From Thermoanaerobaculia bacterium (GTDB taxonomy: Bacteria; Acidobacteriota; Thermoanaerobaculia; Gp7-AA8), in contig DASXHZ010000029.1 of assembly GCA_036488085.1 (NCBI GenBank), forward strand, positions 42,860 through 106,859: a stretch of 64,000 bases of DNA. The letters are read 5' to 3'. Positions within the stretch are counted from its first letter, which is position 1; every line of letters begins with the position of its first letter. Positions 6,761-54,705 of the stretch are shown here, piece after piece. The position numbers were made by a program, and so were the translations under genes. Under the pieces are notes generated by a model. The model was not told where the DNA came from. It searched no databases and worked only from the letters and a program-made list of their open reading frames with translations.

Positions 6761-7510
6761 TCACTCGAACGTCGCCACGACCGGTGCGTGATCGCTCGTC
6801 CCGATCTCGCGGTACGACGGACACGCCGTCGCGCGCTCCGCAAGCGCGTTACTCGCGAGCACATAGTCGAGCCGCCAGCCGATGTTCCGCTGGCGCATGT
6901 TCCGCCACGGCGCCCACCAACTGAAGTACTCCTCGTCTGCGGGATAGAGCTTGCGGCCGACGTCGGCGAGGCCGCCGTCGCGCAGCAGCTCCTCGAACAT
7001 CCCGCGCTCTTCGGGCAACTGGCCGATCGCGCGCGGCTTCCGCTCCTTCGGATGAACGTCCATCTCGCTCCGTGCGATGTTCATGTCGCCGCAGATGACG
7101 AGCTGCCGCCCGGCCTCGCGCATCGACCGCGCGTACGCGATCAGCTCTCGGAAAAAAGCGATCTTCGCCGTGAAATCCTTGCCCCCATTCGGAACGTAAA
7201 CCGATGCAACCGTCGTCTCCCCGATTTCCGCCTGAACGATGCGCGTCTCGCTGTCGAAGTGCGGATGCGAGAACTTCGGCTCTCCCGGGAACGCCGCGCG
7301 CCGCACGTGCAGCCCGACGCCCGAGTAGGCTGCCTCGCCGTGCCAGTAACACGCATAGCCTTCGAGATCGCAGATCGAAGGCGGAATCTGCTCCTGCTTC
7401 GCCTTCAACTCCTGCAGACAGACGACGTCCGGCTGCTCCGCCGTGACCCAATCGAGGAACTGCTCGTGCCGGGCGCGAATCCCGTTCACGTTCCAAGTCG
7501 CGATTTTCAT
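6761..7510 (-). CDS. xthA: Exodeoxyribonuclease III
   Basis: MKIATWNVNGIRAR N-terminus. Full ExoIII/EEP-family signature through the C-terminal SDHAPV. Confidence 0.9.
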   Translation of the reverse strand: MKIATWNVNGIRARHEQFLDWVTAEQPDVVCLQELKAKQEQIPPSICDLEGYACYWHGEAAYSGVGLHVRRAAFPGEPKFSHPHFDSETRIVQAEIGETTVASVYVPNGGKDFTAKIAFFRELIAYARSMREAGRQLVICGDMNIARSEMDVHPKERKPRAIGQLPEERGMFEELLRDGGLADVGRKLYPADEEYFSWWAPWRNMRQRNIGWRLDYVLASNALAERATACPSYREIGTSDHAPVVATFE

Positions 7511-38534: not shown

Positions 38535-39211
38535 GCGCGCGTCACGCGTCCATCCGCGACGTCGATCACCGACTGTCCGAACGAGGCGGCGCGCTCCGAG
38601 TGCGTCGCCATCACGATCGTGGCGCGCGTCGCGGCGTGAACGTCGCGCAACAGCTCCAGCACCCGCTCGCCGTTGCGCGAATCGAGATTGCCGGTCGGCT
38701 CGTCGGCGAGGACGAGCGCGGGGCGGTGCACGATGGCGCGGCCGATGGCGACGCGCTGCATCTCGCCGCCGGAGAGCTCGTTCGGCGAATGCGTCGCCCG
38801 GTGCGCCAGGCCGACCTGCTCGAGCACCTCGGACACCCGCGTCCGAACCTCTTCACGCGGACGCTTCGCGAGCGAGAGCGGGAACGCCACGTTCTCGAAC
38901 ACCGTGAGGGTCGGAATCAGATTGAAGAACTGGAACACGAAGCCGAGCCGCAGCCGCCGGAGAGACGTGAGCTGCGCCTCCGACATCGCCGACGTCTCGT
39001 CGTCGCCGAGGAAGAGGCGGCCGGAGGTGGGACGGTCCACGGCGCCGATCAGATTGAGGAGCGTCGACTTACCGCTCCCCGAGGCGCCGCGCAGCACCGC
39101 GAACTCCCCCGTGGCGATCTCCAGCGATACGTCGTCCAGCACCTGCACCGCCGCCGACTCCGCGGTCGGCGAATACGTGTGCGTGACGTGTTCGAGGCGG
39201 ACGCGCATCAT
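38531..39211 (-). CDS. ABC transporter ATP-binding protein (MacB/LolD-like)
   Basis: Walker A GASGSGKST, signature LSGGEMQR, Walker B LVLADEPTGNLD. Confidence 0.9.
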   Translation of the reverse strand: MMRVRLEHVTHTYSPTAESAAVQVLDDVSLEIATGEFAVLRGASGSGKSTLLNLIGAVDRPTSGRLFLGDDETSAMSEAQLTSLRRLRLGFVFQFFNLIPTLTVFENVAFPLSLAKRPREEVRTRVSEVLEQVGLAHRATHSPNELSGGEMQRVAIGRAIVHRPALVLADEPTGNLDSRNGERVLELLRDVHAATRATIVMATHSERAASFGQSVIDVADGRVTRA

Positions 39212-39276
39212 TTGATTCTACGTTGGGCAAATTTCTGCATATGCTTCTCGCGCTGTGAACGAAGGAGGTTTCTCCC

Positions 39277-39576
39277 ATGGTGGAAGAGACGACAACCGCG
39301 AGCCCGGGCGACGGGGCTGACGACAACACCGATGAGACCGCCGGCCGCTTCGGCCGCGCGAAAGACTACGTGAACGAGCAATACGGCCGGGCGTCGGGCA
39401 AAGTGCGCGACGGCTACAACAGCGTGCGCGAGAAGGTCGAAGACGTCGACTTTGGCGCGATCACCGACCAGGTACGGAGCTACGTCCGCTCCAACCCCGG
39501 CAAGGCGCTCCTGATCTCGGTCGGCGTCGGATTCGTCGTCGGCCTGATGCTGCGCCGCGACGACAACGGGGACTGA
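39277..39576 (+). CDS. DUF883/ElaB-YqjD-family membrane-anchored protein
   Basis: Hydrophilic N-terminus, conserved ...NPGKALLISVGVGFVVGLML C-terminal TM anchor. Confidence 0.65.
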   Translation: MVEETTTASPGDGADDNTDETAGRFGRAKDYVNEQYGRASGKVRDGYNSVREKVEDVDFGAITDQVRSYVRSNPGKALLISVGVGFVVGLMLRRDDNGD

Positions 39577-39911
39577 TGATGGCGACGCGCAACAAAGACG
39601 ACGACTTCGAGCGCTCGGCGGCGGGGATGGACTACGAGGACCCGATCCGCGAGCGTGCCGCATCGATCGGCGCCTCCATCGCCGAAAACGGCCCCGAGGT
39701 GATCTTCGAGGAGATCGAGAACCTCTTGCCGGAGGAGTGGCGCGAGCAGATCAAGACCTTCCCGCTCGCCGCGATGCTCCTCGGCCTCGGCGTCGGCATC
39801 TTTCTCGGGATGAAGAAAGGCGACGACATCATTGCCGCCGGCTCCGCTCTCGTGACCTCCGCGGCGATGTCGAACGTGAACGAAGTACTGGGGAAAGTGG
39901 GCAGCCGGTAA
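39576..39911 (+). CDS. Small membrane protein, possible second ElaB-like paralogue
   Basis: Acidic N-terminus plus C-terminal TM (PLAAMLLGLGVGIFLGM). ATGA overlap with the previous gene. Confidence 0.5.
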   Translation: MMATRNKDDDFERSAAGMDYEDPIRERAASIGASIAENGPEVIFEEIENLLPEEWREQIKTFPLAAMLLGLGVGIFLGMKKGDDIIAAGSALVTSAAMSNVNEVLGKVGSR

Positions 39912-39960
39912 TCTGGACACTTGTCACGGCATCGCGCGGACCGCACAATAGGAACGCGCG

Positions 39961-40413
39961 ATGCCGCCGATGCTCCCGCTGCCCGATAACGCCCGGAACT
40001 ACCTCGAGTCGCTGGCTGGCGACGTCCACCGGGCGTATTTTTGGAAGGTGCCGCCGCTGCCGGTGCGGTGGGGGCAGCAGATCACGCGGAAGCGGCGGCG
40101 TTCGATCCGGCTCGGGTCGTACAACCATGTGACGACCGAGATCCGGATCCATCCGCTGTTGCGTGGGGCGAACGTGCCGGCGTACGTGCTCGAGTCGATC
40201 ATCCACCACGAGTACCTGCACCACATATTGGGGCCGCACCACAACCGTCGGTTCCATGCGAACGAGCGGAAGTTCCGGTACTACCGCGAGTCTCAGGAGT
40301 GGATCCGGCGACATCTGTTCCTGCTGCTGGGGCGGAAGCGGAGCGAGCTGCGGTCGCGGAGGGAGATCGCGCCGGCGGCCGAGACGCCGCGCGTACAGCT
40401 CGCGCTGTTCTAG
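39961..40413 (+). CDS. HExxH zinc-metallopeptidase-like protein (DUF45/YgjP/SprT-like)
   Basis: HEYLHH motif within a YgjP-like context. Basic C-terminus. Confidence 0.55.
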   Translation: MPPMLPLPDNARNYLESLAGDVHRAYFWKVPPLPVRWGQQITRKRRRSIRLGSYNHVTTEIRIHPLLRGANVPAYVLESIIHHEYLHHILGPHHNRRFHANERKFRYYRESQEWIRRHLFLLLGRKRSELRSRREIAPAAETPRVQLALF

Positions 40414-40419
40414 CGGTAC

Positions 40420-40645
40420 GGCACCGCGGCACGTGAACTCTCTAAGAGTACAACTGTACTTTATGAGAGTACGCTACGGATCTCAATGCGTACAATTGCC
40501 GTCCCGAGTATGACAGTCGTACATCTTAAGCGTCCGTATCTACTTTTCACCCGCCTATATCTACTCTCAGAGATCCTATTTGTATGTGAGAGGCTCGCAG
40601 TTGTACTTCACATGAGTACATCTGTACTGTCCGTGAGTACGACGG
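40420..40645. repeat. AT-rich (~45% GC) convergent intergenic region with GTAC-rich palindromes
   Basis: AGTACAACTGTACT (40447-40460) and AGTACATCTGTACT (40615-40628), both perfect 6+2+6 palindromes. Additional imperfect copies (TATGACAGTCGTA, GAGTACGACGG). Direct repeat TATCTACT x2. Confidence 0.5.
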
Positions 40646-42244
40646 TCAAACCTCAGCGTCCATGAGGGCGCGAAGGTCCGCGAGTGACGCTGCGTCAACG
40701 CGCTCGCGAGACATCGCCGCGACCATGCGCTCCACGCCCGCTTTATGCCGGCGGTCGAACCGATCGTCGACAGCGACCGGAAACCGCGTGATCGCAGCGG
40801 CTTTCGTCACACGTGGGCGGAGCGTTGAAGCTGCAGGCAGCACCTCCGCCGGCGAGAGCGGCTTGAGAAACTCGCGCCGGACGCGGTTCTTCGCCGCGAT
40901 CGTGGCGACAATCTTCGTCTCGCCGCCGCGCGGCAGGAAGTAGATGGCCCGGACGTTGTCGCGCGTCTGCCCGATACGGTGCGCGCGTCCGTTGCGTTGA
41001 TCGAGCCTCGCGGGGTTCCACGGGATGTCGTAATGCACAACCACGGCGGCGCGCTGCAGGTTGAGCCCCTCGCTGGCGAAGTCGGTGGTGACGACGACGT
41101 CGATCGCGCCGCGCTGGAACGCGTCGATCGCGCCGCGGCCGTCGCGTGCGGTCGCGACGCCGCAATGCAAGCCAGCGGCGACCTGGCGCGCTGTCGCCAC
41201 CGATCCGGTGAAGATCAGCGCCGGCTCGGTCGGTAGCGCGGCGCGCAGAAGGTCCAGTTTGTTCGAACCGTTCCGCTCCGCGAAGGACTGCACGGCGGCG
41301 AGTCGCTGCATTTCGTCGCGGATGGCGCCGGTATCGAGATCCGACGCCGGAGCCCAGACGTCCCAGAAGAGGACCTGCTGAAACGGCTCCCCTTCCTCCT
41401 CGTGCGCGAACGCGCGGCGGTACTCGCGTTTCGTGAGCGGACGCCCGCTCTCGAGCACCCGCTCGTAGAAGCGGAGCTGGCGTTTCACCGACTCGATCAA
41501 TGCGGCCTCGCTCGACTCGAGCCGGCGCCAGAGGAAACGTCGCAGCAGCGGCGCGGCGCCGGTGAGCGGGAACTGCAGCGCGTCGATCGGCGCCGCGACG
41601 ACCGCGTGCCGGATCACGCGCCGCTCGAGGGAACCGAACTGCAGACGCTCCGGAAGGACGCTGCGGTCGCGGCGGATGAGCAGCGCGCCGAGGATGCTTC
41701 CGATCGCGTCGCGATCATGGGTCTCGAATGCGAGATCGATCGACGCCACGCCGCGGCCGAGGAGAATGTCGTCGCGGGCGATCAACGCGAGCAGAGAGTG
41801 AAGGTCACGCGCCGAGTTGCAGAGCGGCATTGCGGTGACGAGGAGGACGCGCGCGGCGAGGGTCCGCCTCGCCAGCGCGTCGTAACGCTGGGTCGCCGGA
41901 TTCCGGAACGCATGCGCCTCGTCGACGATGACGAGACGCGGAACCGCAGGATCGGCGATGCGCGGCGAGCGCGCGAGTGTGTCGTGCGTCTCGATCCGCG
42001 CGTCGACGCCGAATTGCCGGAGCGTCTGCTGCCACTGCACGACCAGCGATGCGGGGACGATGAGCTCCACCTCACCGGCGAATCGTTTCGCCACCGCGGC
42101 GGCAACGAACGACTTCCCGAGGCCCGCCTCGTCGGCGAGGATGACTCCGCCGAACGCGTCGATGGCGGCGACGGCGCGGGAAACCGCCTCGACCTGGTGC
42201 TCAGCGAGCAAGGCGGTGGTCGACGAAGCGGCGGAGCGTCGCAA
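40646..42244 (-). CDS. SNF2-family (SF2) helicase/ATPase, compact form without accessory N-terminal domain
   Basis: Q-motif/motif I ...HQVEAV...ADEAGLGKS, motif II VIVDEAHAFRN, helicase-C block HYDIPWNPARLDQRNGRAHRIGQ. The start is a non-ATG codon (TTG at 42244 or 42211), overlapping the methyltransferase gene. Confidence 0.85.
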   Translation of the reverse strand: MRRSAASSTTALLAEHQVEAVSRAVAAIDAFGGVILADEAGLGKSFVAAAVAKRFAGEVELIVPASLVVQWQQTLRQFGVDARIETHDTLARSPRIADPAVPRLVIVDEAHAFRNPATQRYDALARRTLAARVLLVTAMPLCNSARDLHSLLALIARDDILLGRGVASIDLAFETHDRDAIGSILGALLIRRDRSVLPERLQFGSLERRVIRHAVVAAPIDALQFPLTGAAPLLRRFLWRRLESSEAALIESVKRQLRFYERVLESGRPLTKREYRRAFAHEEEGEPFQQVLFWDVWAPASDLDTGAIRDEMQRLAAVQSFAERNGSNKLDLLRAALPTEPALIFTGSVATARQVAAGLHCGVATARDGRGAIDAFQRGAIDVVVTTDFASEGLNLQRAAVVVHYDIPWNPARLDQRNGRAHRIGQTRDNVRAIYFLPRGGETKIVATIAAKNRVRREFLKPLSPAEVLPAASTLRPRVTKAAAITRFPVAVDDRFDRRHKAGVERMVAAMSRERVDAASLADLRALMDAEV

Positions 42245-45206
42245 GCTCCTTCTGCGTGACGCCGTACAGCTTCGCCACCGCCTGATCGACTTCGTCGTCC
42301 ATGTCCCGGCCGGCGTGAGCGCGACGGGCGAGGCGCGTCAGCGTGGCAGCACTTTCGATCGGCACCAGCGGAAGTTGCGCAACGGTGCGGCCGAACATTC
42401 GAAAATGTGCATCCTTCGCGCGCTCGGCAACGGCGAGCAGCAACGCATTGGCAATGGTGGAGTTGAGGATCGCGCTGAGCGCGTACGCCTCGTCGAGCGA
42501 GGCCGCGTCGATCGAGTAAAGCGTCTGGTTGGGAACGAGCGGCACCGCGCGGCCGTTTACGTCAACGGAGTCGGGCAGCACCGCGGCGGTCATTCCGCGC
42601 GAGACGTCCTTCCACGCGACCTTGATCCCGACATGCTCCGGCTTCACGTAGGCCAGCGAAAAATCAGAAGGGTCGACGCCGCGCGCTGCGGCGAGGTTCC
42701 GCAGCCAACGCGGAGGAGTCTTCCAACCTTTTCGCGGCGGCCACACCATCCACTCCGAAGCGCCGGCACTCCAACGTTTGAGATCGCGTCCGCGCACGCA
42801 GCGCGCGACATGCGCCAGCGGGATGCAGTGGCGTTCACCCGTGATGAGCGCCGAGCCGCGGACGCGGCATTCGCCCAGGAAGAACGCGTGGTTGTCGCCC
42901 GTCTTCACGCCCATGAGCGGGCGGCGGCCGAGCGTGATCGCGAGCGGCCGGTGGGCGGCACGAAGACGGCGCAAAACGGCGGCGGCATCGGTCGGTACGA
43001 GCGCCCACTCGCAGGTCGCCGCGAGGTCTTCGTGCGTGAGGCGAAAGGAAACATCGTCGTCGACGACGAGCACCTGCCCGCGCGGTCGTCTCTTCGCGAG
43101 CGTCAGACCGAGCGGGAACGTGTCGGCGTCGAAATGACGCTTCGCGCTCGCGCTCCAGTCTTCGATCGCAACGACGTCATGCTGCATCGCCGCGCGACGC
43201 AGAGGCGCGGCATATCCGGCATTGAGAATCTTCGCCGGCATCAGCATCGACACGACGCCGCCCTCGGCTGCAAGCGAGAGGGCACGCTCGAAGAAGGCGA
43301 GCGAGAGATCGGGCTGGTGAAATGCGGCGCCGCCGTACGCAGGCCGGAAGAACGCGTATCGATCCGCCACCATCCGTTTCGCGCGCGCGTCGATGCGCGC
43401 GTTGCGGACCCAAGGCGGATTGCCCGCCACGACGTCGAAGCCGCCGCCCGCCATCACCGGCGCGAAGTGGACGTCGAACGAGAAAAAGTCGAGCGTCCCA
43501 TCTTCGATGCGATCGAGCGTGCGGCGATGATCGGCGATACGCGCGTGCAGCTCACGGCAGCGTTCGAGGTCGGCGTTCAGCGCCCGTCCGAAGAGATCGT
43601 GTTGCGGAGCCGTGAGGTGCCGCAACTCCGCCTCATCGGCGTCGATGGAGCGCGCCACGAGATCCGACGCCAGGCGGCGATCGTTCTCGCGAATCAGACG
43701 CGCGAGCGCCGGCCGCTCGTCGCGCGGCGAGTGACGATAGCGGTTGAGCAGGTCGCTCTGCGCGCGCAACGCGTAGACCCATTCGCGATAGATCTCGCCG
43801 CGCGAGTCGCCGAGAAAGTCGGCCGGGCCGAGGAGGGAATTGCCCTGGAGAATGTTCCGGTCGAGGTTCGGAAGGGGCGGGATGTCTTCAACCTCGGCGT
43901 CGGTCGTCGAGACGATGGCGAGCCAGAGCCGCAACTCGCAGAGGCGGACCGCTTCCGGCTTGAGATCGACGCCGTAGAGCGATCGCTCCACGATCTGCTG
44001 GCGAAGGTTCGCGGCAACCGGTACGTTCGCGTCGCCGCTCAGCGTTCGCGTCAGCCGCTCGATGACGCCGAGCGACGACAGCAAGAATGCCCCCGAGCCG
44101 CACGCGGGATCGAGAACCGTGATCGACTCTAGTCGCCCGAGCTTCTCCAGCGAGTCGCCTTCGCCGAGCCACTCGACGACCGCCCGTTCGGTGAGCACGT
44201 CGACGATCTCTCGCGGCGTGTAGAAGCTGCCGCTTGCCGCACGTTCGCCGGCGGCCATGAGCGACTCGAACACTTTGCCGAGCATCTCCGGGTCGACATG
44301 CGTGCCGGCGGAGTCGCGTTCGTTGCTCGAAAAGTCGAACCGTTCGAAAACGTCTTCGATGATGCGGCGCATCAAATCGTCATCGACGTCGAGCGACGGC
44401 TGCCGCCATTCGAATGCCGACGGCTCGAAAAGACCGCCATTCAGATACGGGATGCGGCCGAGCCGCAGCGCGGTGATATCGCGATCGCGCAGCGGCGTGT
44501 TGAGACAGCCGAAGAAGAGTGGCGAGAGCACAGTCGCGAAAAATTCGCGCTGCTGCAGCCGGTCGAACAGGAACCGGCGCTCGCCGTTGAGCCACCCTTT
44601 CTCCTGAACGAACGACAGAAACAGCAATCGCGACAGGATCAGCAGCGCCTCGGCGTCACACGCATCGCGCGACTCCTGGGCGCAGCTCGCGGCAAGCGAC
44701 TTCGCAACCTCTCCTACGGCGTCGCGGAATCGCTCGAAGAATCGCCGCGTGACCGATTCGCGGTCGAGCGCGAGGTCGAAGACCTTCGCCAGCGCGTTCG
44801 GCTCCGTCGCCGCGAGGAGATTGAGGCGGTCGATCGCGTGCGATGACGGCGATTCGAGATCGACGTCGAGACGCCGAAGCGTGCGATGTGGCGACAGGTC
44901 GTAGACCGATAATGAGCCATGGCGCTCGTGCAGCACGGCGGACTTCGTCAGCACGTTGTACTCGCGATACGTCTTCAGGAACTCGAACAGCGCTCCCTCT
45001 TCCGCGTCGCCGCGGAGATGAAAGAGATCGAAGCGGCGCAGGCGCGCCGCGAGTGAGAACGAAGACGTACCGTTCCAGCCAACGGCAACACCGGCGCGGC
45101 GCCACTCGGCGGGATCGATGGCCACCGACGCAATCGCGTACCCGAGGTCGCGAAAGAGGGCGAGGGTGTCGCCGTGCAGCTCACGGATGCGCGCGGCGGT
45201 CAGCAC
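42201..45206 (-). CDS. PglX/MmeI-like (Type IIL / BREX-type) gamma-class N6-adenine DNA methyltransferase, 1001 aa
   Basis: Motif X/I FYTPREIVDVL ... LDPACGSGAFL. Motif IV VVAGNPPWV. Upstream helical block LLILSRLLFLSFVQEKGWL typical of the MmeI/PglX family. Characteristic C-terminal ...AKLYGVTQKELATL. Confidence 0.85.
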   Translation of the reverse strand: MLTAARIRELHGDTLALFRDLGYAIASVAIDPAEWRRAGVAVGWNGTSSFSLAARLRRFDLFHLRGDAEEGALFEFLKTYREYNVLTKSAVLHERHGSLSVYDLSPHRTLRRLDVDLESPSSHAIDRLNLLAATEPNALAKVFDLALDRESVTRRFFERFRDAVGEVAKSLAASCAQESRDACDAEALLILSRLLFLSFVQEKGWLNGERRFLFDRLQQREFFATVLSPLFFGCLNTPLRDRDITALRLGRIPYLNGGLFEPSAFEWRQPSLDVDDDLMRRIIEDVFERFDFSSNERDSAGTHVDPEMLGKVFESLMAAGERAASGSFYTPREIVDVLTERAVVEWLGEGDSLEKLGRLESITVLDPACGSGAFLLSSLGVIERLTRTLSGDANVPVAANLRQQIVERSLYGVDLKPEAVRLCELRLWLAIVSTTDAEVEDIPPLPNLDRNILQGNSLLGPADFLGDSRGEIYREWVYALRAQSDLLNRYRHSPRDERPALARLIRENDRRLASDLVARSIDADEAELRHLTAPQHDLFGRALNADLERCRELHARIADHRRTLDRIEDGTLDFFSFDVHFAPVMAGGGFDVVAGNPPWVRNARIDARAKRMVADRYAFFRPAYGGAAFHQPDLSLAFFERALSLAAEGGVVSMLMPAKILNAGYAAPLRRAAMQHDVVAIEDWSASAKRHFDADTFPLGLTLAKRRPRGQVLVVDDDVSFRLTHEDLAATCEWALVPTDAAAVLRRLRAAHRPLAITLGRRPLMGVKTGDNHAFFLGECRVRGSALITGERHCIPLAHVARCVRGRDLKRWSAGASEWMVWPPRKGWKTPPRWLRNLAAARGVDPSDFSLAYVKPEHVGIKVAWKDVSRGMTAAVLPDSVDVNGRAVPLVPNQTLYSIDAASLDEAYALSAILNSTIANALLLAVAERAKDAHFRMFGRTVAQLPLVPIESAATLTRLARRAHAGRDMDDEVDQAVAKLYGVTQKELATLRRFVDHRLAR

Positions 45207-45301
45207 CGCTGTTCACCCGTCGCGAACGCCCGCCAGATCGCCGGCCCGTCGATGCGGACATCCTTCGCTCCTCGGAAGAGGACGAATAGACTTCGCCCCC
45301 G

Positions 45302-46966
45302 ATGGTCCGATGGGCGTACATGAAGCGGTTCCTGGCAGGGGCGCTCTTCGGCCTCTACGCCGCGCACCTCCTCTATCTGCTCAACCCGCAGGTGGAGGTC
45401 ACGCCCGCGAAGCTCATCGGCGTCACGCTCTTCTACGCCGCCATCGGCGGTCTCCTCTTCGGCACCGCCCTCTGGCTCCTGCGCATCGCGCGCGTCCGCC
45501 TCTTCGGCAAGCCGGCCACGAACGGCTACCGCCCCCACGGCTTCGGCTTCATCGTCCTCGCCGCCTTCATCGCCGCGACGGTCTACTGGATCCACCTCGA
45601 CGCCGTGCGCGCCTATCTCCCGATCGACGCCGTGCACCTGCTCATCAAGGCGACGAACCTGATCACACTCGTGGCGTTCATCTTCCTGCTGCTCTGGTTC
45701 TTCGAGCGCAACGCAAGCCGGCGCGTCTCCCGCGCCATCTTCGTGACCGCGCTGCTCACCGTGGTCGTCTCGTCGGTCTTCCTCTACGAGCGCCGCGATA
45801 CGTACCGGACGGAGAAGAAGAGCGTGGTGGTCGCGAACATCGGGACGATCGCCGGCGAGCGGCCGGTGATCGTGGTCGCGATCCGCAGTCTCCCCTACGA
45901 CTGGATCGTGCAGCTCGCCGGCGAAGGGAACCTCCCGTTCTTCGACGCGGCCCGCCAGCACGCCTACTTCGCCCGCATGGAGCCGTTCGCCACCTCGAGC
46001 GACAAGGCGCTGTGGGCCTCGCTCGCGACTGGGAAGCTGCCATACCGGCACGGCGTGACCGGGAGCTACTCGTATACGACTCCGCTCAACCGCGACGAGC
46101 CGTTCCTGCTCCTGCCGAGCGGCGTCGGCTTCCACGTCTGGGGCCTGCTCCCCCCCGTGGAGCGCATCTCGGCCTCGCTCCCCTCGGGGAACGCGCTGCC
46201 GCTCTGGACGATGTTCGAGCGCCTCTCGTTCCACGCCGCCGTCGTGAATTGGCCGAAGGCACAGCGCGGGAGCGCCAGCATCGTCGTGACGGACGCCGCG
46301 ATCCGCACCGCCCCGTACGTGAACGTCGCCAATATCGCGACGCTCGCGCAGAAGTTCGACGGCACCGGGAAGGCACGGCCGCGCATCCTCCGCGGGCTGG
46401 CGGCCGACGTCGATGCCGTCAATATGCTCCGCAGCATCGCGGCGCAGCGGACGCTCGGGCTGAACGTCGTCGCTTTGGACGGCTTCTCGGAGGCGCAGCG
46501 CGCGCTGCACATCTACGCGAACGCTCTCCCTCCCCGCACTTCGATGAAGGGGGAGGCGCTCCGTGCCTACGTCGTGCAGCTCGATGCGCTGCTCGCCGGC
46601 GTCGCCCGCGACTATCCGGACCATGTGCTGGTGGTGACTTCGCCCAGCGGCCCGGCCGCCCCTCCCCTCCCCGTCACGCCGTACGCGTTCGTCCGCGAGG
46701 CGCTCGCGGTCGACGATCCCGGCGCCGACGACGGATTCGTGGTGATCACCGGCATCGGCACCACGCACCGCGACAACCCCGCCGCGGCGAAGGTCGACGA
46801 CATCGTGCCGACGACGCTGTTCGCCGCCGGTCTCCCCGCCGGCCGCGACATGGACGGCTCGGTGCTCACCGCCGCGTTCGACGACGCTTTCCTGCGGCGC
46901 AATGCGCTCTCGCTCATCGCCACGTATGAGGCGAAGCAGATCGTGGTGCGGCGGGGCGGTCCGTAG
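45302..46966 (+). CDS. Membrane-anchored alkaline-phosphatase-superfamily protein (nucleotide pyrophosphatase/phosphodiesterase-like)
   Basis: Four to five N-terminal TM helices. AP-superfamily block ...SLATGKLPYRHGVTG. The long minus-strand ORF 45200..47050 is an antisense artefact. Confidence 0.65.
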   Translation: MVRWAYMKRFLAGALFGLYAAHLLYLLNPQVEVTPAKLIGVTLFYAAIGGLLFGTALWLLRIARVRLFGKPATNGYRPHGFGFIVLAAFIAATVYWIHLDAVRAYLPIDAVHLLIKATNLITLVAFIFLLLWFFERNASRRVSRAIFVTALLTVVVSSVFLYERRDTYRTEKKSVVVANIGTIAGERPVIVVAIRSLPYDWIVQLAGEGNLPFFDAARQHAYFARMEPFATSSDKALWASLATGKLPYRHGVTGSYSYTTPLNRDEPFLLLPSGVGFHVWGLLPPVERISASLPSGNALPLWTMFERLSFHAAVVNWPKAQRGSASIVVTDAAIRTAPYVNVANIATLAQKFDGTGKARPRILRGLAADVDAVNMLRSIAAQRTLGLNVVALDGFSEAQRALHIYANALPPRTSMKGEALRAYVVQLDALLAGVARDYPDHVLVVTSPSGPAAPPLPVTPYAFVREALAVDDPGADDGFVVITGIGTTHRDNPAAAKVDDIVPTTLFAAGLPAGRDMDGSVLTAAFDDAFLRRNALSLIATYEAKQIVVRRGGP

Positions 46967-53594: not shown

Positions 53595-53661
53595 GTCAAC
53601 ATCAGAACGAAGCCGGGTATACTTCCCGCACAGCATCTCCCCTTAAATCTGGAGGACACCC

Positions 53662-54705
53662 ATGGCCGAGCGGTCGAATACCGCCGGGTTGATCGAGTTT
53701 GCGATCAACTTGAAACGAAGTTCACACCAACTGCTCAGTTGCCTTGACGTGGTTTACGGTGCGTTCCTCTCATATTTTCTCTGGGTCGTTGGTCAGACGA
53801 TTACTTCCTATTTTGAGCGGCCAACTGCTCCGGCCGGCTTTAAATTAGTGTGCATGTCGTTGATGTTTCTCTTCATCATCGAGGACTTCAGGGACGTGAA
53901 GCTCATCACGTCCATCTGCGGCTATCACCTCTCGTCATTTCGATTCTTCCTCGACATCGCCATAGTCCTTATACTTTTTACGACTACTCTTTTCCTGTTT
54001 GGCAAGAACCCCAATGCGCAACCTAACAGAAACTTTCTGTTTTCCTTTGCCATCGTTTTCTTTCTGTGCACAGCTTGGGCTCTTCTGCTCACGAAAGACA
54101 AACGTGACGTTCCGCCAAACTACAGTGTCGCCGTCGCTGCATCTCACTTTGTCGTGGGGTGCACTTGGCTGGTTCTCTGGGCGTTCGTTTCGCAGGCCGG
54201 AGTGCTCTGGCGACTCCCGCTCGTGAGTCCGGCCGTGCGCCTCATCATGATCGCCGTGTTTTCCATCTACTACATCATGGCGTCATGGCTCTTCGGATCG
54301 CTACGACGTCGCGGCATACCAGTGGACGACTACGGCGAGATGATCGTGCCGAAAGTAGCGCGAAACGTCGTCGCGCTCTTCCGGTCGGCGGCAGGCGTGT
54401 TCCGCAGCGGTCTCTCACGCGGAGAGCCTAGATGGAGATGGTTTCGCGGTCAGCCCCGCTCGACTTCTAATCACTACGTCGTCGTGGCGCAATTTGCTGA
54501 CGGCACCTCGACGCCGATGCAGCTCACCGACTATGTCAACCTTCAGGTACGCCGCGGTCACCACTGTGTTTATGTAACTGAAGACGGCGCCGCGCATGAG
54601 GGTGACGGAGCTACAATTCGGTTAACGGCCACCCCAGAACAGGACCAAAAGGCTCAGTTTCTCGTACAAGAGAAGAATCCGCCTTCTGAAAGGCATCGGA
54701 CATGA
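53662..54705 (+). CDS. Multi-TM membrane protein of unknown function with ~100-aa C-terminal soluble domain, low-GC island
   Basis: GGAGG RBS 8 nt upstream. About six hydrophobic helices. Local GC ~50% versus ~68% genome-wide. No recognisable domain. Confidence 0.55.
   Translation: MAERSNTAGLIEFAINLKRSSHQLLSCLDVVYGAFLSYFLWVVGQTITSYFERPTAPAGFKLVCMSLMFLFIIEDFRDVKLITSICGYHLSSFRFFLDIAIVLILFTTTLFLFGKNPNAQPNRNFLFSFAIVFFLCTAWALLLTKDKRDVPPNYSVAVAASHFVVGCTWLVLWAFVSQAGVLWRLPLVSPAVRLIMIAVFSIYYIMASWLFGSLRRRGIPVDDYGEMIVPKVARNVVALFRSAAGVFRSGLSRGEPRWRWFRGQPRSTSNHYVVVAQFADGTSTPMQLTDYVNLQVRRGHHCVYVTEDGAAHEGDGATIRLTATPEQDQKAQFLVQEKNPPSERHRT

Follow-up and report, generated by a model that had tools for sequence, protein, structure and literature searches.

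The 64-kb stretch of Thermoanaerobaculia DNA analysed here (in its entirety referred to as the window) carries an AT-rich array of palindromes between a gene for an HExxH protein and a gene for an SNF2 helicase. The two genes converge, with the HExxH stop codon at 40411-40413 on the plus strand and the helicase stop codon at 40646-48 on the minus strand, leaving 232 bp between two 3' ends. The original prediction had described a markedly AT-rich convergent spacer, and this is confirmed with a true extent of 40414-40645; the GC content is 48% overall (profile 44-51%), compared with ~65-73% in the flanks. GTAC occurs eleven times within 245 bp (40393-40637), against a window mean of ~0.7 per 250 bp, and no other such outlier exists in the window. 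Both 14-bp palindromes that had been reported, AGTACAACTGTACT at 40447-40460 and AGTACATCTGTACT at 40615-40628, were found again, and AGTACANNTGTACT has no other exact match in the 64 kb (0 in 100 shuffles); allowing three mismatches added one unrelated site in the window. The spacer contains the following features:

40414..40645, no strand: AT-rich spacer of ~10-11 tandem 21-bp units, variably decayed 7-5-7 palindromes TGTACTC-N5-GAGTACA, as seen from autocorrelation, unit scores and GC profile
40434..40474, plus strand: operator-like block O1, TGAACTC-tctaa-GAGTACA-ac-TGTACTT-tatga-GAGTACG; four half-sites with 5-2-5 spacing, arms 13/14 and 12/14, 33.9 bits
40447..40460, no strand: first 14-mer AGTACAACTGTACT, which forms the central dyad of O1 and the middle of a 12-2-12-like inverted repeat, with the hexamer TACAAC at the -10 position
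40476..40601, no strand: six decayed inner units in phase (7-9/14), including GCGTACAATTGC (40488-40499) and two TCTACT units at 40539 and 40560 (the TATCTACT repeats)
40602..40642, plus strand: operator-like block O2, TGTACTT-cacat-GAGTACA-tc-TGTACTG-tccgt-GAGTACG; arms 13/14 and 12/14, 30.6 bits, forming a direct repeat with O1
40615..40628, no strand: second 14-mer AGTACATCTGTACT, central dyad of O2, with the hexamer TACATC at the -10 position

Base autocorrelation of the spacer is highest at lag 21 (z 6.4-6.8), and every one of the eight leading lags is a multiple of 21. Counted in phase from 40434, ten units of the 7-5-7 palindrome can be laid out, of which those at 40434, 40455, 40602 and 40623 match 13, 12, 13 and 12 of the 14 arm positions and the six inner ones 7-9, while random 19-mers of equal composition average 3.5. 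The 14-mers are junctions of two neighbouring good units (GAGTACA-NN-TGTACT), and the TATCTACT repeats, confirmed as a pair, are decayed in-phase units; the sequence also contains the degenerate copies and the 59-codon open reading frame (ORF) at 40486-40665 that had been noted earlier. No further unit scoring at least 11/14 exists in the 64 kb. Tandem Repeats Finder did not report the array, because it is too degenerate. O1 and O2 are 40-bp blocks of four half-sites each in equal orientation, lying 168 bp apart, that is 8 x 21 bp or ~16 helical turns. They agree at 25/28 arm positions and at only 4/12 spacer positions (Fisher p = 7e-4), which means that conservation between them is confined to the contact positions.

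Public DNA was searched with the 19-base pattern GAGTACANNTGTACTNNNNNNGAGTAC, matched by both O1 and O2, and this revealed 54 contigs, one viral and 53 from metagenomes. On ~20 of them the pattern occurs on both strands 11 bp apart and thus forms a 38-bp palindrome GTACTCattttGAGTACAatTGTACTCaaaatGAGTAC. The site adjoins or covers the start of a homologous gene of ~200 codons in 33/54 contigs, the first codons of which, ATG-AGT-AC, are the last half-site. The encoded protein of ~200 aa displays an N-terminal winged helix-turn-helix (wHTH) of the MarR/ArsR type and a C-terminal minimal nucleotidyltransferase (MNT) domain (NTP_transf_2/Polbeta, GS...DxD), with sequence matches of the N-domain to BigR, SmtB and ArsR and of the C-domain to the MntA antitoxin. 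Downstream, the loci that were checked have an overlapping gene of ~150 codons; one of three scanned homologues passed the Pfam HEPN threshold and the other two were weakly HEPN-like. By its predicted function, the site is an operator at which the wHTH-MNT protein, as antitoxin-type partner of the HEPN protein, represses its own operon, the wHTH-MNT/HEPN pair being a form of the HEPN/MNT toxin-antitoxin pair; from the N-domain matches we infer binding by an ArsR-fold repressor. The earlier suggestion that repeated palindromes of this kind mark a regulator-binding array has thus been borne out, the same pattern being the operator on wHTH-MNT gene starts elsewhere. Matches on contigs L102, L109, L121, L126 and L130 were set aside; these are low-GC (37-40%) metagenome contigs with long 21-bp tandem repeats such as GAGTACATGTGTACTTGTGCT, probably unrelated minisatellites or chance matches.

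The genuine operators share the 38-bp layout GTACTC-N5-GAGTACA-N2-TGTACTC-N5-GAGTAC, with a -10 box (TACAAT) in the centre and the ATG in the last half-site. The central hexamer reads TACAnT in 16/20 non-redundant operators, a TTGACA-like (TTGnnn) -35 hexamer lies 17 nt upstream of the -10 box in at least ten loci, and 10 nt separate the -10 box from the ATG. With the -10 box inside the palindrome and the ATG only 10 nt further on, operator, promoter and the start of a near-leaderless mRNA would coincide. The left-most half-site, which lies outside the search pattern, is shared by those loci and the window.

A protein-first approach led to the same operator. A profile built from eight regulators recovered more than 5000 relatives, named 'nucleotidyltransferase domain-containing protein' or 'ArsR family regulator' and found in metagenome-assembled genomes (MAGs) of Acidobacteriaceae, Vicinamibacterales, Rokubacteria and Propionibacteriaceae. 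Among the best 120 relatives, 96 begin with MST/MRT (ATG-AGT/AGA-AC), and in a high-GC subgroup 87/120 begin with M/V-[SGR]-T; about 25 over-extended gene calls even contain 'VLILSTIVLxM[SR]T', which is the translated operator. Three loci retrieved by protein alone carry the operator or a close variant. At one of these, L138, the operator centre is GCGTACAATTGC, the identical 12-mer that occurs at 40488-40499 of the window, and this points to a third, decayed operator centre within the array. More than 5000 genes of the ArsR-like wHTH and MNT antitoxin type, in several phyla, would therefore have a compact control region in common, in which one 38-bp palindrome serves as operator, -10 box and near-leaderless start codon. 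We found no description of wHTH-fused MNT antitoxins binding this operator, or of the 38-bp operator itself, in the literature searched.

The closest counterparts are HEPN/MNT operons. In Shewanella SO_3165/3166, the antitoxin binds palindromes that overlap the promoter of an operon in which MNT precedes HEPN (PMC4621449), and an order with MNT first and an overlapping HEPN gene has been described for these pairs (PMC3710099). Like the autoregulated HepT/MntA type VII system, the family described here has palindromes overlapping the promoter and an MNT gene followed by an overlapping HEPN-like gene. One difference is the ArsR-like wHTH at the N-terminus of its MNT protein, no DNA-binding domain being predicted for SO_3165 (PMC4621449); another is that in the window the operator is, unlike HEPN/MNT operators, multiplied and without an operon. 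A second likeness is to SmtB/ArsR proteins, which bind 12-2-12 inverted repeats (PMC8790569): the central dyad of the genuine sites is such a 12-2-12 repeat, ATTTTGAGTACA-AT-TGTACTCAAAAT, with an arm symmetry of 12/12, compared with 9/12 in O1 and 6/12 in O2. Different from SmtB/ArsR are the absence of a metal-sensing context, the extra flanking half-sites and the nucleotidyltransferase domain at the C-terminus.

Both 14-mers also formally fit RGTACNNNDGTWCB, the cyanobacterial LexA consensus as quoted in PMC3091678, and this part of the original prediction holds. Resemblance to LexA boxes (GAAC-N4-GTTC or RGTACNNNDGTWCB) extends to the 14-bp palindrome and the GTAC-N4-GTAC cores. Tandem 21-bp spacing is also known from some SOS promoters, such as that of E. 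coli lexA. The spacer would then hold LexA boxes of the cyanobacterial or Gram-positive type for an unannotated SOS gene, a reading that we consider extremely improbable, since the context does not fit. The site lies between two 3' ends, neither lexA nor recA nor any other SOS gene was found nearby in the window, and the gene associated with the motif is wHTH-MNT, present at the motif in the 33 contigs mentioned above; with E. coli LexA and RecA queries, a lexA homologue was found on 0/54 motif contigs and the sole recA-like match lies ~6 kb off, so that the expected position of the motif at promoters of lexA, recA or imuA-type genes was not seen. The host is moreover an acidobacterium, and the LexA box reported for Acidobacterium capsulatum is described as being of alphaproteobacterial origin (according to a title cited in PMC4951493). 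The alphaproteobacterial motif is GTTC-N7-GTTC.

Two further regulators recognise sites with related cores, namely CopY/BlaI, with its 'cop box' TACANNTGTA, and YefM-YoeB, with paired GTAC-core palindromes TGTACA, as described in the abstracts of PMC7253601 and PMC1802561. The 14-mers of the window contain TACAACTGTA and TACATCTGTA. The spacing of the half-sites differs, however; no BlaI/CopY-type gene was found among the 20 small ORFs of the window that were scanned (the regulators found are one TetR and one ECF sigma factor), and the YefM-type hexamer TGTACA does not occur in the spacer.

O1 and O2 share the half-site architecture of the wHTH-MNT operators, having four alternating GAGTAC-type half-sites with 5-2-5 spacing over 38-40 bp, and lack their promoter and start-codon features. 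A 38-bp matrix built from 20 genuine operators gave the blocks the scores listed above, the next-best site elsewhere in the window reaching ~10 bits; the matrix is partly circular, its training sites having been found via a window-derived pattern, while that pattern has no bearing on the left half-site, the ATG or the protein-first test. No match of at least 15 bits was detected in 1.23 Mb of Thermoanaerobaculia DNA. At the -10 position, C takes the place of the final T in both O1 (TACAAC) and O2 (TACATC), in contrast to TACAnT in most genuine sites; the -35 position shows GCGGCA/CTCGCA instead of a TTGACA-like hexamer; and the start positions in the fourth half-sites open ORFs of 10-17 codons only. 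Having no regulator gene, usable promoter or start codon, the array is predicted to drive no gene. On the minus strand, a sigma-70-like site TTGAGA-17-TAAAGT (40486-40458) overlaps O1, one being found where 0.1 is expected in shuffles; a transcript starting there would run antisense into the 3' end of the HExxH gene.

A small protein gene within the spacer was also considered, that is, the 59-codon ORF or a 51-codon version starting at 40510, encoding for example a small membrane toxin under control of the palindromes. The frame is open, starts with ATG, and an intact TACAAT at 40491-40496 lies 13 nt before the ATG at 40510. Nevertheless, no homologue was found among 1.84 billion representative proteins and no family match was obtained, the GC content at third codon positions (0.43) is foreign to that of the native genes (0.78-0.93), no -35 is present, and between the window and its close relative L143 three non-synonymous changes stand against two synonymous ones. 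The frame is open because 21 bp equal seven codons. We therefore regard a peptide gene as hardly credible, and for this window both a tempting SOS/LexA annotation and a spurious small ORF can be removed.

Judged by its sequence, the spacer is the wHTH-MNT operator in multiplied and orphaned form, without a gene or a credible promoter. Such operators occur without their genes not only here. On contig L125, a second site (6833-6870) comes directly after a GNAT-like gene, has no regulator gene and lies ~60 nt upstream of a gene read from its translation as glycosyltransferase/TPR-like, and on L083/L103/L120 a site near one contig end directly follows a GNAT-like gene. The array in the window is thus not a one-off, and the sites on L125 and L083/L103/L120 suggest that regulators of this family may have targets beyond their own operon.

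Whether the array is still bound is another matter. That a family member encoded elsewhere in the genome binds it in trans, the array acting as a roadblock, an insulator or a sink, has in our view about an even chance. According to the mechanism proposed, a 21-bp half-operator would have been multiplied to ~10 units behind the HExxH gene, with only the two outer pairs staying near consensus, and the trans-encoded protein would bind these two outer blocks of four half-sites. Lying on the same helix face 16 turns apart, O1 and O2 would allow cooperative or looped binding, which could set up a roadblock or an insulator where the two genes converge, or make the array a regulator sink; the element itself would be fast-evolving and dispensable. 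Should orphan sites of this kind be occupied, the chromosomal targets of toxin-antitoxin regulators would extend past their own operons.

The genes around the spacer are:

39961..40413, plus strand: HExxH (SprT/YgjP-like) gene, 150 aa; the array follows its stop codon in this lineage
40646..42211, minus strand: SNF2 helicase, 521 aa, last gene of a three-gene methylase/helicase island and not linked to the array
42201-45206, minus strand: type IIG-like methyltransferase, 1001 aa, island gene
45302-46966, plus strand: alkaline-phosphatase-superfamily protein, island gene (the island spans 40646-46966 of the window)

Upstream of the spacer, the HExxH gene forms a plus-strand operon with genes for a 99-aa DUF883-like protein and a 111-aa protein, showing native codon usage. 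A metagenome contig identical to window positions 38880-46239 was found. The HExxH protein is conserved across the class and was used to reach close relatives, in which island and array are distributed as follows:

L143/L144: HExxH protein 99% identical (98.9% nucleotide identity over 10.9 kb); island present; array present
L139: HExxH protein 93% identical (88-90% at the nucleotide level); island present; array cleanly absent
L140/L141: HExxH protein 92% identical; island absent, a gene for an HtrA-type protease follows; array of homologous type present
L142: HExxH protein 85% identical; island absent; array absent, GC-rich hairpins in its place

In L140/L141 an array of 250 bp directly follows the HExxH stop codon; it is also 21-bp periodic (z 6.5), contains units of 14/14, 12/14 and 12/14, and aligns with the array of the window at a score ~5 standard deviations above shuffles. 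In L139 the alignment breaks at window positions 40411 and 40645, leaving two stop codons 1 bp apart, and the boundaries of this clean indel reveal neither terminal inverted repeats nor a target duplication. None of ~60 orthologous helicase loci shows GTAC-N4-GTAC or a unit of at least 11/14 downstream, and in 55 helicase loci other than those of the relatives listed no unit exceeds 10/14; GTAC clusters seen in some helicase loci lie inside a sigma-factor gene. Judged from these loci, the array is a feature of the HExxH 3' flank, restricted to a narrow lineage of Thermoanaerobaculia, and is independent of the methylase/helicase island. In the comparison of orthologous spacers that had been proposed as a check, the array is present in L143/L144 and L140/L141, absent from L139 and L142, and diverges at about the synonymous rate.

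This distribution bears on the suggestion that the spacer is an iteron, a centromere-like site or the attachment site of a mobile element, for example of the island. AT-rich tandem direct repeats of ~21 bp between converging genes indeed resemble iteron/partition arrays, and the array lies at the edge of a variable island. Yet the island occurs without the array in L139 and the array without the island in L140, the 55 other island loci have no array, and the original idea of an attachment site at the module edge does not agree with this. Annotation of the surrounding ORFs revealed no rep, par or integrase gene, the neighbourhood consisting of chromosomal housekeeping genes; the array is single-copy in all DNA examined; a blastn search of the spacer against phages and plasmids gave no match, and a 6-kb megablast against plasmids returned ABC-transporter motifs only. 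Such a site is, in our judgement, very unlikely.

The occurrence of a homologous-type array behind the same HExxH gene in L140/L141, despite a different downstream gene, was counted in favour of the orphan-operator explanation. It would also suit an element acting at the RNA level, in which transcripts of the HExxH operon end in hairpins formed by the palindromic units, and these serve as a stabiliser resembling repetitive extragenic palindromes (REP), as a terminator or as a small RNA. A 7-bp stem is possible in each unit, folding z-scores are -2.6 on the minus and -1.8 on the plus strand, and GC-rich hairpins occupy the corresponding position in L142. These z-scores are modest, however, no Rfam match was obtained at the gathering threshold or at E <= 5, and a known RNA is not supported; ARAGORN detected no tRNA or tmRNA. 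There is no U-tract terminator except for one weak match, the half-sites keep exactly the 5-2-5 geometry of a protein operator, and, unlike REP families, the array has no other copy in the 64 kb or in the 1.23 Mb of related DNA. We regard an RNA-level role as improbable. Dispersed palindromes of the REP type or of bacterial interspersed mosaic elements (BIME), which the ~21-bp units between converging genes also call to mind, found no support, with no other unit of at least 11/14 in the window and no match of at least 15 bits in the related DNA.

The more serious competitor is a pure relic. The array would then be the promoter/operator remains of a lost wHTH-MNT/HEPN cassette, expanded by slippage to a 21-bp minisatellite and now decaying without effective binding. 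Several observations weigh against a bound array. The arrays of the window and L143 are identical at 226/232 positions, which equals the identity at third codon positions (97.4%), and of the six changes one alters a core arm. For the arrays of the window and L140 the identity is 59%, compared with 67.5% at third codon positions, and the units still intact are not the same ones in the two arrays, although alignments of tandem arrays between lineages are unreliable, as units can be gained and lost. The array is absent from L142 and cleanly absent from the sister genome L139. The blocks of the window score 31-34 bits compared with 53-66 for genuine operators; neither in the 64-kb window (tblastn) nor in six related loci was a regulator homologue found, and no member from Thermoanaerobaculia is among the listed named matches of the family. 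By these comparisons the array changes at roughly the pace of silent sites and is dispensable, and all this fits a decaying relic equally well. The same reading accounts for the loss of the -10 T in both blocks, the missing -35, the very short ORFs at the start positions and the strong decay of the six inner units.

What a relic explains less readily is that the arms of O1 and O2 are conserved and their spacers not, that decay is very uneven between outer units (12-13/14) and inner ones (7-9/14), that a 14/14 unit was kept in L140 despite ~32% divergence at third positions, and that no trace of regulator coding sequence is left. Binding is thus favoured by the arm-confined conservation, the uneven decay, the perfect unit of L140 and the helical phase of O1 and O2, whereas decay is favoured by the neutral-rate divergence, the loss in L139 and the failure to find a cognate regulator in the clade. 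Taken together, a pure relic appears to us possible but the less likely explanation, and we retain the orphan operator bound in trans as the preferred one. A stronger form of it would make the array a maintained chromosomal platform without a gene of its own, on which two in-phase double operators load the wHTH-MNT antitoxin. It could act as a sink, setting the level of free antitoxin and thereby the threshold of HEPN toxin release, or as a roadblock insulating the converging units, with slippage turning over the units and selection keeping a few of them at consensus; we consider this rather unlikely.

Some further observations concern the motif and the neighbouring genes. Contigs L095 (133-200), L100 (41-110) and L129 (860-960) carry 4-6 GAGTAC half-sites, spaced by ~10-11 bp, in front of a small gene that has a ribosome-binding site. 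A wHTH-MNT gene was not detected on any of them; L100 has large phage-like ORFs as read from translation. A different regulator may use the same half-site there. On L137 (131-6639), a wHTH-MNT gene and the pair gene downstream of it lie within an apparent integrative element with serine recombinase, Prim-Pol/D5 primase and sigma-70-like genes, an arrangement that would fit mobility of wHTH-MNT cassettes.

A second AT-rich stretch of the window (53600-54700, 45-52% GC) contains a 347-codon ORF (53662-54705, plus strand) of non-native composition and without a Pfam match. The three-gene module of the island is conserved in ~60 Thermoanaerobaculia species, helicase orthologues in ~60 MAGs of this class of Acidobacteriota being 50-60% identical, yet it is absent at this site in the close relatives L140 and L142 and thus behaves as an inserted, variable island. 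Parts of it resemble components of BREX/DISARM, the other genes of those systems not being present. The longest ORF of the helicase has 532 codons and overlaps the methyltransferase stop by 44 nt (42201-42244); its start is called at 521 codons with an 11-nt overlap in L001/L143, and at 532 codons in L139.

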